In this document: piece after piece, positions 4,589-9,262 of the stretch | How positions within the stretch are numbered: position 1 is the first letter of the stretch | Layout of the letters: the number at the start of each line of letters is the position of its first letter | Source of the DNA: a virus | IMG/VR virus record: IMGVR_UViG_3300044632_001278 | Reading direction: 5' to 3' (one strand) | DNA length: 64,000 nt | Position numbers and translations under genes: made by a program | The notes under the pieces: generated by a model | What the model was told of the DNA's origin: nothing | What the model saw: only the letters and a program-made list of their open reading frames with translations | Databases searched by the model: none

Positions 4589-4622
4589 AAGCCGGTGGAG
4601 TTTTTATACCCCACCGGCTTTC
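4589..4622 (+). terminator. Intrinsic terminator-like hairpin after SSB
   Basis: AAGCCGGTGG...CCACCGGCTT 10-bp stem followed by a short T-rich tail. Confidence 0.65.
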
Positions 4623-4636
4623 TAGTTATATACGTT

Positions 4637-5782
4637 ATGGCAAAGAAAAGTGTTACAAAAGATACATCGGGTCAACGTGACGAATTAATCGAAATGTTGG
4701 CGAATGAGCTTAACAAAGCAAATAAAGATGGTGGTAAAATTGCACATTTCCTAGATGAACAAGATAATCCTTCAGAAATTACTGATTGGATTAGTACTGG
4801 CTCTTCTATTTTGGATCTTGCAATTAGTAATCGTCCACACGGCGGTCTACCAGTTGGTAAGATGGTTGAATTCAACGGACTTGAAGGTACTGGTAAGAGT
4901 CTATTGTCGGCACACGTTGTCGCAGATACACAGAAGAAGGGTGGAGTCGCTGTAGTAATTGATACTGAAAACGCAGCTGCGCCTGAGTTCTGGAAGAGTC
5001 TTGGTGTAGATTTGTCTAAGCTACTATATGTTCAATGTGAAACCGTTGAAGATATTTTTGCTCAGATGGAGAAGATGATCGCGATTGTTCGTAAGAGCAA
5101 CAAAGATCGTATTCTTACAATCATTGTAGATTCTGTAGCAGCAGCATCTACTAAAGTTGAATTGGAAAGTGATCACGGTAAGGATGGATTTGCAACGGGT
5201 AAATCTATTATTATCAGTAAGGCAATGCGTAAGATTACTACTATGATTGGTAAACAGAAAGTATTGACTGTATTTACTAATCAACTACGTCAGAATTTAA
5301 ATGCTATGGCATTTGGTGATAAGTACGTAGTAAGTGGTGGTAAGGCTTTAGCATATCATTGTAGTGTACGTGTTCGTTTGAATAATGCCGGTAAACTCAA
5401 GAAGGGTGAAGAAGTCATCGGAAACGAGTGTAAGGCAGTTGTTATCAAGAATCGTATGGGACCACCTCAACGTCAGGCCAATTTTGATATCTATTTTGAT
5501 AGTGGAATTGCTGACTATGGCAGTTGGATTAAAGTTCTAAAAGAACAAAATCTAATTAAACAGGGTGGTGCTTATTATACTTATAAAAAGAACGATGGAA
5601 ACGAATGGAAGTTCCAATCCAAAGACTTTGTAAGTGTAATGCAGAGTGACAAACAATTGGGTGAAGAAATTTACCTGAAGATTTGTGACGCTGTAATTAT
5701 GAAATACAAAGATCCCAATAGTCAAATTATTGAGGATGCTGTTGTGGATACACACGAAGAAACTGCAGGCAACGAAGAATAA
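4637..5782 (+). CDS. recA: RecA/UvsX recombinase
   Basis: ISTGSSILD, Walker A GLEGTGKS, IDTENA, IVDSVAA, NQLR, GGKALAYH, KNRMGPP; likely start is ATG 4637. Confidence 0.93.
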   Translation: MAKKSVTKDTSGQRDELIEMLANELNKANKDGGKIAHFLDEQDNPSEITDWISTGSSILDLAISNRPHGGLPVGKMVEFNGLEGTGKSLLSAHVVADTQKKGGVAVVIDTENAAAPEFWKSLGVDLSKLLYVQCETVEDIFAQMEKMIAIVRKSNKDRILTIIVDSVAAASTKVELESDHGKDGFATGKSIIISKAMRKITTMIGKQKVLTVFTNQLRQNLNAMAFGDKYVVSGGKALAYHCSVRVRLNNAGKLKKGEEVIGNECKAVVIKNRMGPPQRQANFDIYFDSGIADYGSWIKVLKEQNLIKQGGAYYTYKKNDGNEWKFQSKDFVSVMQSDKQLGEEIYLKICDAVIMKYKDPNSQIIEDAVVDTHEETAGNEE

Positions 5783-5796
5783 TACGTTGATAGGAT

Positions 5797-5848
5797 GTTT
5801 TTCCGCATTGCCTACTATTTATTAGTATGGATAACAATGCGGAAAAAC
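5797..5848 (+). promoter_or_regulatory. 14-bp perfect inverted repeat enclosing the late-promoter-like motif and start codon of the endonuclease gene
   Basis: GTTTTTCCGCATTG (5797-5810) pairs with CAATGCGGAAAAAC (5835-5848); loop holds TATTTAT and ATG 5827. Confidence 0.75.
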
Positions 5849-6759
5849 TCTTTTTTGAAGACCGATCTGAACGATTATATCAAATCTTTATAAAAGATGA
5901 ATCAATATGTGGATTTACTTCTTTATTTAAACTGAATAAAATTGGTAGCAAAACTGGGGAAAAAATAAAAAAATATTTATATAATAAATATGGTGAAACT
6001 TATTTGAAAAAAATAAGTGCTGTTAGAACGTCTAAAGCTGCTCATCAAAAAAGAAACAAAGATAGTTATTTTATTTCTTCAGAAAGAAGACAAAAAATGT
6101 CTGTCGGTATTAAAAAATATTATAAAAATAATCAGTCCGCTAAATCTAGATGTAGGGATTTAATGATTAAACATTGTTTACCAAAGTGCCAAACAATGGA
6201 GAGTAAAATAAAACGAGTAAAGAGTAGAGACTGGTATAAACCCAGTGAAGACACTAAACAAAAAATGTCTCAATCTCAACTTGGAAAGCCATTAACAGAA
6301 GAACATAAGTTAAAATTAAGAAAACCAAAGAAAACCAAACGATCTAATTTTAGACATACTACTGAAACAAAACACAAATTATCGTTAATTACTAAAAATC
6401 AGTGGAAAAGTGGAATTCACAAACCAATTTTTAAATCTAAAGGACAGCAGGAAGTAATTAGATTGTTAAAAGAACAAGGATATTCAATTCAAGATGAATA
6501 TGTTGTTGGGGGGAAGCCATACGATGTGTTTGTAAAAGAAAAAAATTTATTAATAGAATTTAATGGTACTTATTGGCACAGAGATCCTAGATTTTTTACA
6601 TCGTCCGATGAAGTTATTAAAATATGGGAAAAAGATAAAAATAAAATGTTGATTGCTGAATCGAATGGGTATATAATAAAAGTTATATGGCAACACGATT
6701 GGGAACAATGTAAAGACAAAAATATATACATTAAAAAACTATTAAATGAGCAACTTTGA
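5827..6759 (+). mobile_element. Free-standing homing endonuclease (NUMOD3-like repeats plus Vsr/DUF559-type PD-(D/E)XK domain)
   Basis: SEDTKQKMS, LTEEHKLKL, HTTETKHKLS repeats; C-terminal YDVFVKEKNLLIEFNGTYWH...GYIIKVIWQHDW; inserted between recA and the nuclease gene. Confidence 0.8.
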
Positions 6760-6874
6760 CAACAAAGAAATGAAGAAGTTATTTTCTTTATTTCAAAATA
6801 TAGAAAGCGATTCCGTCACCGGAGGACTTAAAAAATCACTTAATAGTGATGTCCTTTTGGTTGACGGATTGTAG
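6746..6874 (+). CDS. N-terminal 42-aa segment of RNase H/5'-3' exonuclease (not in ORF track)
   Basis: MSNFDNKEMKKLFSLFQNIESDSVTGGLKKSLNSDVLLVDGL-TAG; ends in the first catalytic strand VLLVDG; stop overlaps the GTG of the next ORF. Confidence 0.75.
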   Translation: MSNFDNKEMKKLFSLFQNIESDSVTGGLKKSLNSDVLLVDGL

Positions 6875-7818
6875 TGAATACTTACATTCGTAGTTTTATG
6901 GCCATTCCTTCACTCAATGAAGATGGGTTACACACTGGGGGTATTGCTGGTTTCTTGAAGAGCATTGGATATGCAATTAAATTACTTTCTCCTACCCGAG
7001 TTATTATTGTATTTGATGGTAAAGGTGGTAGTCAGAAACGCAGAAAGATATATCCAGGTTACAAAAACGGCAGAAAGACTGATATTCGTCTCAACCGTAA
7101 TTACGAAGAATTATCTTCATCACAGATTGAATCTGTTAACTTCAAAAAAGAATTGATTCGTACTGTAAATTATTTGGACACGTTGCCTGTAACAGTTATG
7201 GCAATTGATCAAATAGAAGCGGACGACACAATTGCTTATTTAGCTAAAGAAACTTTTAAGGACAGTAATGTAACAATTATGTCTACTGATAAAGATTTTC
7301 TTCAACTAGCAAGTGACAAGATTAAAATCTGGAGTCCTGTAAAAAAGAAAATTTTTGGTTGTAAAGAAATAGTGGATGAATATGGAATTACTTGCAATAA
7401 CTTTGTTTTATACAGAGTTATGGAAGGTGACGTTAGCGACAACATACCTGGACTAGATGGTGTGGGTTTAAAACGTGTAGTAAAAGCATTTCCATTTTTA
7501 TCAGACGGTCAACAATATGGATTACAAGAAATTTATAATTACTCTGAAAACAACAGAGGTAAATATAAAATATACGATACTGTATTGGATAATAAGTTGT
7601 TACTAGAAAGAAATCACTCTCTGATGCAATTGAGTGATACGCAGGTTCAGTCATTTACACAATTACGTATAGAAGAAATAATAAAGACTCCTATTCGTAA
7701 AATAGATAAAATGACTTTTACGAAGTTGATTACAGAAGACAAAATGTGGAATAATATCCCAAATTATCACATTTGGTTGAATGAGTGTTTTGGCAAACTA
7801 AACAGTTTCATCGAATAA
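6874..7818 (+). CDS. rnh: T4 RNase H-like 5'-3' exonuclease/flap endonuclease, C-terminal segment
   Basis: NTYIRSF, VFDG, YKNGR, EADD, STDKDFLQL, GDVSDNIPGLDGVGLK all intact; first catalytic Asp lies in the upstream frame. Confidence 0.88.
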   Translation: MNTYIRSFMAIPSLNEDGLHTGGIAGFLKSIGYAIKLLSPTRVIIVFDGKGGSQKRRKIYPGYKNGRKTDIRLNRNYEELSSSQIESVNFKKELIRTVNYLDTLPVTVMAIDQIEADDTIAYLAKETFKDSNVTIMSTDKDFLQLASDKIKIWSPVKKKIFGCKEIVDEYGITCNNFVLYRVMEGDVSDNIPGLDGVGLKRVVKAFPFLSDGQQYGLQEIYNYSENNRGKYKIYDTVLDNKLLLERNHSLMQLSDTQVQSFTQLRIEEIIKTPIRKIDKMTFTKLITEDKMWNNIPNYHIWLNECFGKLNSFIE

Positions 7819-7879: not shown

Positions 7880-9262
7880 ATGGAAAACAAAAAAGCAATT
7901 GATTCATTAACAAAATATGGCCGTGACTTCCAAATCAAGTGTATTTCGTGCTTGATATCTGATCGTTCATTTATTGAACGAATTCACGATATTATTGAAG
8001 TAGACTTCTTTGAAAGTGATGCAAATAAGTGGGTAGTAAAAGAAAGTATTAAATATTTCAATGAGTATAAAGATCTTCCAACATTAACAGTATTCAAAAT
8101 TAAATTGGATGAGATCAATGATGAACTTCTAAAACGAAGCATAGTAGACAATCTCAAATTGGTATATCAAAAGGTTAGTGATAGTGATTTGAAATTTGTC
8201 AAAGAACAGTTTTTGGAATTCTGTAAGAATCAAAAGCTAAAGAACGCTATTATTGAAAGTGCTGATCTATTGGCACTTGGTCAATACGAAAAGATTAAAA
8301 ACGTAGTTGACCACGCAATGAAAGCTGGTATGGAACGTAATATCGGTCACGATTACTCTGAAGACGTTGAAAAACGTATGAGTGTAATGAGTCGCAATTG
8401 TGTCAAGACCAATTGGACTGAAATTGATACCATTATGGATGGTGGATTGGCGGCCGGCGAACTTGGTATTATTACAGCTTGTGCTGGTAGTGGTAAGAGT
8501 TGGGTACTATCCAAGTTGGGTGCCGAAGCAATGAAGCAGGGTAAGAATGTAGTTCATTTTACTCTAGAGTTGAATGAAAACTATGTGGGTCTTCGTTATG
8601 ATGCTTGTTTTACTGGAATTGATTTCCAAAACATTCGTAACAACGTTGATATCGTAAAACAGAAGATTGCTGATGTACCAGGCAAGTTGAAGATCAAATA
8701 CTTCCCAATCAAGACAGTTAGTGCTTATAGTTTAAAAGCACATTGTGAACGATTGGCTGTACTTGGTACAAAGGTAGATATGATTATCGTTGACTACGCT
8801 GATATTCTACGTCCTTCTCAGAGTGAACGTAATAGTAACAGTTATAGTGAAGCTGGTGGTATTTATGAAGAACTACGTGGTGTAGCTGGTGAACTACAAG
8901 TTCCTATTTGGAGTGCTTCACAGAGCAATCGTGCTGCTATGGATGAAGATATCATTCAGGCTAATAACATTGCTGATAGTTATCGTAAGATTATGACTGC
9001 TGACTTCGTTATGTCACTCAGTCGTAAAGTTAACGATAAACAGGCAAATACAGCACGATTCCACGTAATTAAGAATCGTTTCGGACCAGATGGTTTGACA
9101 TTCCCAAGTAAGATGAACGCTGGTTGTGGTCACATTGAAATTTATGGAGAAAATAGCCGTGAGGGTATGAGTATTCTAAATGAAATGATGGATGGAGAAA
9201 ATCAAGTTAAAAAAGCACTAAAGTCCAAGTGGAATGTACATAACAGCGATGACGAAGAATAA
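7880..9262 (+). CDS. dnaB: Replicative helicase, DnaB/T4 gp41 family
   Basis: Walker A ACAGSGKS, FTLEL, IIVDYAD, WSASQSNR, KNRFGPDG. Confidence 0.9.
   Translation: MENKKAIDSLTKYGRDFQIKCISCLISDRSFIERIHDIIEVDFFESDANKWVVKESIKYFNEYKDLPTLTVFKIKLDEINDELLKRSIVDNLKLVYQKVSDSDLKFVKEQFLEFCKNQKLKNAIIESADLLALGQYEKIKNVVDHAMKAGMERNIGHDYSEDVEKRMSVMSRNCVKTNWTEIDTIMDGGLAAGELGIITACAGSGKSWVLSKLGAEAMKQGKNVVHFTLELNENYVGLRYDACFTGIDFQNIRNNVDIVKQKIADVPGKLKIKYFPIKTVSAYSLKAHCERLAVLGTKVDMIIVDYADILRPSQSERNSNSYSEAGGIYEELRGVAGELQVPIWSASQSNRAAMDEDIIQANNIADSYRKIMTADFVMSLSRKVNDKQANTARFHVIKNRFGPDGLTFPSKMNAGCGHIEIYGENSREGMSILNEMMDGENQVKKALKSKWNVHNSDDEE

Follow-up and report, generated by a model that had tools for sequence, protein, structure and literature searches.

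Within the 64,000-nucleotide (nt) stretch of viral DNA analyzed here (IMG/VR record IMGVR_UViG_3300044632_001278, referred to below as the window), which comes from a large freshwater T4-like phage, the rnh gene for a 5' nuclease is interrupted inside its first catalytic motif by the five nucleotides TAGTG. We are highly confident that these nucleotides form the edge of a mobile endonuclease cassette and are maintained by selection. A short ribosomal hop across the gap is the mechanism best supported by the comparative data, and we put its probability at about 60%.

When the sequence and its open reading frames (ORFs) were read again, the layout given in a preliminary description of the locus proved correct to the base. 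ORF1 opens at ATG 6746 and closes with the residues SDVLLVDGL, followed by TAG at 6872-6874; the first catalytic Asp of rnh (GAC 6863-6865) lies within it. GTG 6874-6876 shares one base with TAG and opens the 314-codon ORF2, which begins MNTYIRSF, runs to 7818, and is in the -1/+2 frame relative to ORF1. A TGA at 6862-6864 closes the ORF2 frame, and the change of frame is therefore confined to 6865-6876, an interval in which no slippery run was seen. The elements of the junction are as follows.

6746-6874, plus strand: ORF1, the cassette-borne recoded start of rnh, 42 codons ending in TAG (from the ratio of nonsynonymous to synonymous substitution rates, dN/dS, and 60% amino acid identity to the native start)
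6869-6871, plus strand: proposed take-off codon TTG (Leu42), the last sense codon in every TAGTG allele
6872-6876, plus strand: coding gap TAGTG, 5 nt, with the proposed landing triplet GTG at 6874-6876 (read from the sequence)
6877-7818, plus strand: remainder of rnh (FEN/5'-3' exonuclease), in which decoding would resume at AAT (Asn) (Pfam 5_3_exonuc_N, 3.4e-27)

The two ORFs together make up a nuclease of the FEN/T4 RNase H type (PF02739). ORF2 spans positions 10-164 of the 164 in Pfam 5_3_exonuc_N and lacks only the first strand, which is supplied, with its Asp, by ORF1. An uninterrupted twin of the gene, in locus L001 (retrieved loci are numbered in this way), aligns to the 5' nuclease of Taq polymerase from the VLLVDG strand and its Asp, which we take from the Taq structure to be a metal ligand. 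The downstream acidic motifs are present in this alignment, as had been stated for the catalytic motifs from the sequence of the window. In L001 and other uninterrupted relatives the ORF2 protein is 100% identical and continuous with the preceding strand as LLVDGLNTYIRSF. A search for longer proteins that contain the ORF1 sequence gave nothing useful.

A protein-guided scan of IMG/VR yielded 80 loci with relatives of ORF2 at 78-100% identity. At 52 of them the gene reads LLVDGLNTY without interruption and starts about 5 nt past the uvsX stop. The exact junction of the window, TTG-TAG-TG, is present at 24 of the 80, from many separate metagenomes, and also in ENA, Logan, and JGI contigs; an in-frame stop occupies the junction position at 4. 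Error in sequencing or assembly of the window is always a general possibility, but the same junction has been assembled independently in more than 20 metagenomes by several pipelines, and related junction types have conserved forms of their own; we regard such an error as extremely unlikely.

Comparison with cassette-free relatives places the five nucleotides at the right end of a larger element, the left end of which lies directly after the uvsX TAA (5780-5782).

5783-6876, plus strand: mobile cassette, 1094 nt, comprising the endonuclease gene, the recoded 5' end of rnh, and the gap (breakpoints relative to cassette-free relatives)

The cassette stands in place of 131 nt of these relatives. 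UvsX, ORF2, and the gp41 helicase of the window are 99-100% identical to those of L001-L005, which have neither cassette nor gap, and identity with L001 breaks at the uvsX stop and returns at the Asn codon. In this otherwise 100%-identical background, the ORF1 protein of the cassette is only 60% identical to the native N terminus. The last part of ORF1 has a p-distance of 0.008 across backgrounds in which the synonymous divergence of ORF2 is about 0.5, and the element therefore moves horizontally. Co-occurrence of TAGTG with the endonuclease, which the preliminary description had anticipated, is looser than expected: the endonuclease is present at 11 of the 24 TAGTG loci, and 13 have no intact copy. 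The endonuclease-free loci mostly have a spacer of 95-130 nt, and two (L071 and L072) retain a short remnant of the endonuclease. Where the window has an inverted repeat around the endonuclease start codon (5797-5848), endonuclease-free TAGTG loci have a different hairpin spacer (for example L059:2790-2830). L300:1064-1500 and L310 have an endonuclease reduced to its C-terminal nuclease domain directly past the uvsX stop. These two loci keep the short ORF1, the hairpin described below, and a CUU-UGA-CUA junction, so the gap outlives the endonuclease. L015:2738-3001 is a chimera: the 5' half of its ORF1 and its spacer are cassette-like, but the junction is unbroken and the hairpin is absent (z-score -0.2); recombination probably removed the gap.

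Start and length are retained in all 22 distinct interrupted ORF1 sequences. For the 20 of these with 42 codons, dN/dS is 0.22, as compared with 0.13 for the corresponding stretch in intact genes, and for the last 13 codons, where changes are almost only synonymous, it is 0.11. When the TAGTG-only or TAG-TTA-only alleles are taken by themselves, the nonsynonymous/synonymous ratio comes to 0.25-0.29. Judged by these substitution patterns, ORF1 is under purifying selection. ORF2 has no internal stop or second lesion in 34 distinct interrupted alleles, which include cassettes with endonucleases 30-60% identical. The contention that the interrupted gene is functional and not decaying is thus supported by the constraint on ORF1, by the intactness of ORF2, and by retention of the design across cassettes about 30% identical. 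The dN/dS of the two halves, which had been put forward as a joint measure, is informative for ORF1 but says nothing about post-interruption constraint on ORF2 because the cassette moves between backgrounds.

The rnh junctions were read at the loci of the endonuclease homologues and at other retrieved loci. Fourteen types were distinguished, with gaps of +4 to +11 nt, in which UAG, UAA, and UGA and all three frames are used. They are given here as take-off codon, stop, spacer, and the triplet preceding the Asn codon.

UUG UAG UG, +5, window
CUG UAG UG, +5, L199
UUG UAG UUA, +6
CUC UAA CUU, +6
CUU UGA CUA, +6, two lineages
CUU UGA CUC, +6
UAC UGA C, +4, L240
CUC UAG C GUC, +7
CUA UAG A AAA, +7, L336
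CUC UAG UA AUC, +8
CUC UAA CAAA AUC, +10
CUU UGA AGAAG CUG, +11
ACU UAG CU, +5, L335
ACC UGA CA, +5, L339

The take-off codon and the triplet that precedes Asn agree at two or more positions, or are wobble partners, in 13 of the 14 types (permuted mean 4.6, P<1e-5). The pair in the window, UUG and GUG, matches at two of three positions, namely 2 and 3, and the take-off codon of L199 is CTG. The bases that follow the stop change in step with the take-off codon: UG accompanies UUG or CUG, CU accompanies ACU, and CA after UGA accompanies ACC. In the +5 forms these two bases copy positions 2 and 3 of the take-off codon, and in ACC UGA CA the last A of the stop completes ACA. Exactly one residue separates Gly and Asn in all 78 distinct uninterrupted sequences, and a hop that starts at the last codon ahead of the stop and lands on the triplet preceding Asn restores this spacing in every interrupted form. 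The commonest stop at the junction is UAG, in 8 of the 14 types, although it is the rarest terminator of the window, where 56 long ORFs end in TAA (35), TGA (19), or TAG (2). With respect to sampling, the metagenome DNA pattern required Asp-Val, which biases the Ser-Asp-Val marker in L199 and L213; the sample obtained with the endonuclease is unbiased. A recurrent match from a broad DNA pattern, Val-Asp-Gly-stop-Tyr-Ala-Asn, was rejected as spurious because it lies on a non-coding strand, and the pattern mostly matched unrelated DNA.

In all 29 interrupted alleles the recoded segment that precedes the gap folds into a covarying hairpin with its end at the take-off codon.

6807-6872, plus strand: RNA stem-loop, the 3' arm of which consists of the Val-Leu-Leu-Val-Asp-Gly-Leu codons (folding and covariation)

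The fold of 6806-6880 has an energy of -29 kcal/mol (z-score -5.0), and none of 200 shuffled sequences is as stable. A fold restricted to 6830-6930 has no signal because the 5' arm is excluded. Across 15 diverse interrupted alleles 98% of cells are paired, five pairs are changed on both sides, and none of 500 shuffles reaches the covariation score. The helix contains CCGUC/GACGG, and the base preceding CCGUC varies together with position 3 of the Gly codon; deeply diverged cassettes have GAU/AUC in place of GAC/GUC, a compensatory exchange. The Asp-Gly codons are fully paired upstream in the minimum-energy fold of 29 of 29 interrupted alleles but only 5 of 78 uninterrupted ones, and the mean fold energies are -29 and -18.5 kcal/mol, respectively. 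In several forms the helix is closed by the take-off codon itself. Distant intact members of the rnh family have no hairpin. Among cassette-free genes, hairpins at codons ~19-39 (z-scores -4 to -7) were recorded in L001 (2934-2992) and also in L010, L014, L020, L068, L074, and L079.

In the mechanism that we propose, the endonuclease would cut cassette-free rnh at or near the conserved Asp-Gly-Leu-Asn site, whereas recoding together with the 5-nt insertion would render the carrier immune to its own endonuclease. Repair of the cut would copy the cassette, or its right part only, into new phages. That the endonuclease cuts here and that the gap confers immunity we infer by analogy. Full-length RNase H would be made when peptidyl-tRNA-Leu is on UUG with the poorly read UAG in the A site: after a 5-nt slide, the tRNA would re-pair with GUG through the last two bases, decoding would resume at AAU, and the product would read LLVDGLNTYIR. 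The tryptic junction peptide of such a product would be SLNSDVLLVDGLNTYIR, with no extra residue. Refolding of the upstream hairpin behind a ribosome paused at the stop, with the 3' arm ending at the take-off codon, probably helps the forward slide.

Of the two mechanisms offered in the preliminary description, the TTG-to-GTG hop of 5 nt is favored, because the take-off and landing triplets match in 13 of 14 types and the post-stop bases covary; the other, coupled translation of two chains, is disfavored as a general mechanism. According to the latter, translation would stop at TAG and restart at GTG, and chains of 42 and 314 residues would form the active site non-covalently. The overlapping TAGTG of the window and L199 has the form expected for this, the constraint on ORF1 is predicted by it as well, and phage enzymes split by homing endonucleases exist (T4 gp39/gp60 and Aeh1 NrdA; bioRxiv 10.1101/2022.08.31.505936). 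However, a conserved and usable downstream start is limited to the TAGTG types: GTG is found at the junction only in these two, and in sister types that belong to this cassette family no canonical start is near enough to serve. The triplet at the start position in other types is GCU, ACA, GUC, AUC, UUA, CUN (CUU, CUA), or AAA, and 11 types have no canonical start at or near the junction; the CUG in L341 is a rare start only, and L193 also lacks a downstream Met. Two coupled chains would moreover leave unexplained the copying of the take-off codon after the stop, and the fragments lack the tails seen in the MobA and MobE splits. We therefore consider a non-covalent enzyme quite unlikely. A simple +1 or -1 shift, of the prfB or X XXY YYZ type, was rejected: 6865-6876 contains no slippery run, and a -1 or +2 shift would add residues. 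The UAC-UGA-C junction of L240 is alone in resembling the prfB +1 shift site; it also fits a +4 hop, and its hairpin has an energy of -29 kcal/mol. This type was seen in one contig without an endonuclease (L240:1440-1520), which reads Val-Asp-Gly-Tyr, UGA, an extra C, and then the Asn codon.

The interrupted gene could instead be a null allele, in which the stop and the gap inactivate a dispensable rnh and the allele is maintained by the drive of the endonuclease and by immunity to cutting. T4 rnh mutants are viable. The cassette spreads horizontally, the loss of the endonuclease at 13 of 24 TAGTG loci is as in a decaying selfish element, and the intactness of ORF2 could stem from recent conversion, its dN/dS being uninformative. 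On the other hand, the start, length, and low dN/dS of ORF1 are kept in cassette lineages that all bear the stop, no second lesion has entered ORF2 in the 34 alleles, and an inactive gene predicts neither the matched triplets nor the conserved register of the hairpin; we judge this explanation unlikely. Suppression of the stop, by a phage suppressor tRNA or a reassigned codon, might be suggested by the large tRNA arrays of relatives (22 and 42 genes on two contigs) and by five junction types that are in frame. All three stops are used across the junction types, however, and the 5-nt gap of the window means that readthrough there stays out of frame. No CUA, UUA, or UCA anticodon was found in the tRNA arrays of the relatives examined, and codon reassignment was rejected because the standard code reads the window genes without breaks. 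Readthrough is thus very unlikely.

Several points weigh against a hop. The similarity of take-off and landing triplets could result in part from local codon duplication and not from selection for re-pairing. The landing triplet of the window is also a GTG start, so that termination-reinitiation is possible at this particular allele. Spontaneous stop-hops in E. coli constructs were reportedly inefficient (Weiss et al. 1987). A strong covarying hairpin, placed about 9 nt further upstream, is also found in cassette-free rnh genes from the clade to which the window belongs, so that interrupted alleles are not alone in having such a structure. Nor is the gap obligatory, since rnh is uninterrupted in three lineages that bear the endonuclease (L334, L338, and L343). 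Recombination with intact genes may have brought in the low dN/dS seen for the 5' half of ORF1. Finally, the L336 type matches its take-off codon at one position only and may be decoded differently or be defective. The junction of L336 (3420-3450; CUA, UAG, A AAA) contains a run of six A.

The gene that makes up most of the cassette encodes a free-standing endonuclease.

5827-6759, plus strand: free-standing homing endonuclease, 310 amino acids, with a probable NUMOD3 motif and a probable C-terminal Vsr/PD-(D/E)XK-like nuclease domain (Pfam, PHROG)
5797-5848, plus strand: 14-base-pair inverted repeat around the endonuclease start codon (5827) (read from the sequence; also in L196)

The endonuclease gene shares its last 14 nt with ORF1, in a different frame; in L199 and L196 the shared stretch measures 5-8 nt. 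PF18741 matches the window endonuclease below the family cut-off (1.6e-7, 31.7 bits as compared with 38.2), and NUMOD3 is below its cut-off in the window copy but above it in the homologues L331 and L339. The PHROG families that match the protein are annotated as homing or HNH endonucleases; a PDB sequence search gave no real match. In a search based on the endonuclease, every full-length homologue, at 29-100% identity, was located between uvsX and rnh, and with most of them the rnh stop comes right after the residue behind Asp-Gly and is followed by the gap. The endonuclease is intact across lineages that are 50-70% identical among themselves. The inverted repeat may restrict translation of the endonuclease.

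The closest parallel is with T4. MobA is reportedly a homing endonuclease associated with the gene 60 bypass cassette (Bonocora et al. 2011). As in that system, a free-standing endonuclease lies directly upstream of, and is overlapped out of frame by, the gap-bearing ORF. A recoded copy of the target precedes the gap, the rnh element ending at the landing codon, and the gap starts with a stop in all 14 rnh types, 13 of which have matched triplets. For MobA and gene 60, the out-of-frame overlap by the downstream ORF, the recoded homologous region, and the opening of the gap with a stop are described in bioRxiv 10.1101/2022.08.31.505936. The gene 60 gap occupies invariant codons, has been reported to prevent self-cleavage, and is kept after loss of the endonuclease (Manning & Atkins, bioRxiv 10.1101/2022.08.31.505936); the rnh gap is likewise retained after endonuclease loss, and the rule of identity or wobble between take-off and landing codons holds in gene 60 relatives also. 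The differences are considerable. The target is rnh and not a topoisomerase, the endonuclease is probably NUMOD3/Vsr-like and not the HNH MobA, and the element is upstream and replaces the start of the gene in place of splitting it. The rnh gap is 4-11 nt long as compared with 50 nt, and the rnh element has no 3' take-off stem-loop and no recognizable nascent-peptide signal. The rnh cassette has a conserved 5' hairpin ending at the take-off codon, whereas among relatives of gene 60 the 5' stem-loop is not preserved. Having no homology to the gene 60 cassette, the rnh element is best classed as an analogue that stands outside that family. For gene 60, bioRxiv 10.1101/2024.12.09.627546 proposes a role for mRNA pairing at the ribosome exit; the refolding suggested here for the rnh hairpin would be similar.

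The synthetic "stop-hops" made in E. coli (Weiss et al. 1987) have, according to PMC5009743, matched codons flanking a stop, so that 9 nt specify one residue; they are artificial and of low efficiency. The in-frame rnh types UUG-UAG-UUA, CUC-UAA-CUU, and CUU-UGA-CUA/CUC have exactly this form, but, unlike the constructs, they are natural and conserved and have a hairpin. Natural occurrences of short hops over a stop are not known according to Atkins et al. 2016 (PMC5009743). In Magnusiomyces mitochondria, the "byps" (Nosek et al. 2015, cited in PMC5009743) are GC-cluster-like inserts of 27-55 nt in many genes with no endonuclease partner. Both they and the rnh gap are short mobile coding inserts that are tolerated because take-off and landing codons match, if at times imperfectly, whereas the rnh element is phage-borne, bound to one site, and much shorter. 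As in Aeh1 NrdA/MobE and T4 gp39/gp60, the rnh interruption is linked to an endonuclease and lies beside the metal-binding motif of a replication enzyme. In those cases, however, the endonuclease is between the halves, which have their own starts and tails, whereas the rnh endonuclease is upstream and most types have no start. In the collaborative homing reported for cyanophage psbA, a free-standing endonuclease is said to act with a protective self-splicing intron in the target (Zeng et al. 2009). There, as here, the endonuclease adjoins its target gene, and the insertion at the target site, which protects the carrier in that system, would do so for rnh as well; the rnh insert differs from the intron in being 4-11 nt long and in having no known removal at the RNA level.

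A literature search found no description of an rnh bypass cassette. We see an even chance that the locus represents a second family of programmed bypass linked to an endonuclease, of independent origin, and the first stop-hops from nature, with a gap of 4-11 nt at the target, re-pairing, and a hairpin-driven slide. Programmed bypassing in bacteria and phages has so far been based on one family, T4 gene 60. The 14 junction types of the rnh locus form a natural series, minimal in length, with a simple hairpin and built-in compensatory variants. The locus also broadens the notion that a homing endonuclease is accompanied by a device that disrupts the site it cuts yet spares the function of the target gene. 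If the locus is indeed such a second family, micro-gaps would be a general and easily missed way for selfish nucleases to immunize essential coding sequence, and many small "frameshifts" and in-frame stops near phage homing endonucleases may be functional. For annotation, such lesions beside endonuclease genes should not be taken by default as pseudogenes or errors.

The order of genes around the junction is gp32, UvsX, the 310-residue endonuclease-like ORF, ORF1/ORF2, a DnaB-like helicase, and NrdA, and the G+C content of the window is 32%.

4595-5782, plus strand: uvsX (RecA-like recombinase), the left flank of the cassette (Pfam RecA, 1.5e-53)
7880-9262: DnaB-like helicase, unbroken in the window

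A megablast search of phage records found nothing, and the record nearest to the window, G001, which is a fragment only, has no match to the 5' nuclease. Related contigs suggest a genome of ~280-340 kb with large tRNA arrays. Within these arrays, ARAGORN calls four-base (ctct, gata) or two-base anticodons (L229:1326-1401, L228:2377-2450, and L220:1421-1492), which may be expanded-anticodon tRNAs or prediction artifacts. In L057 (4007-6766), the DnaB-like helicase is interrupted at its Walker A motif, and a 241-residue Vsr-like endonuclease lies between the pieces. The ends and starts of the pieces are like those of split-intein halves, and the locus resembles the "fractured gene" arrangement reportedly described by Dassa et al. 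2009.

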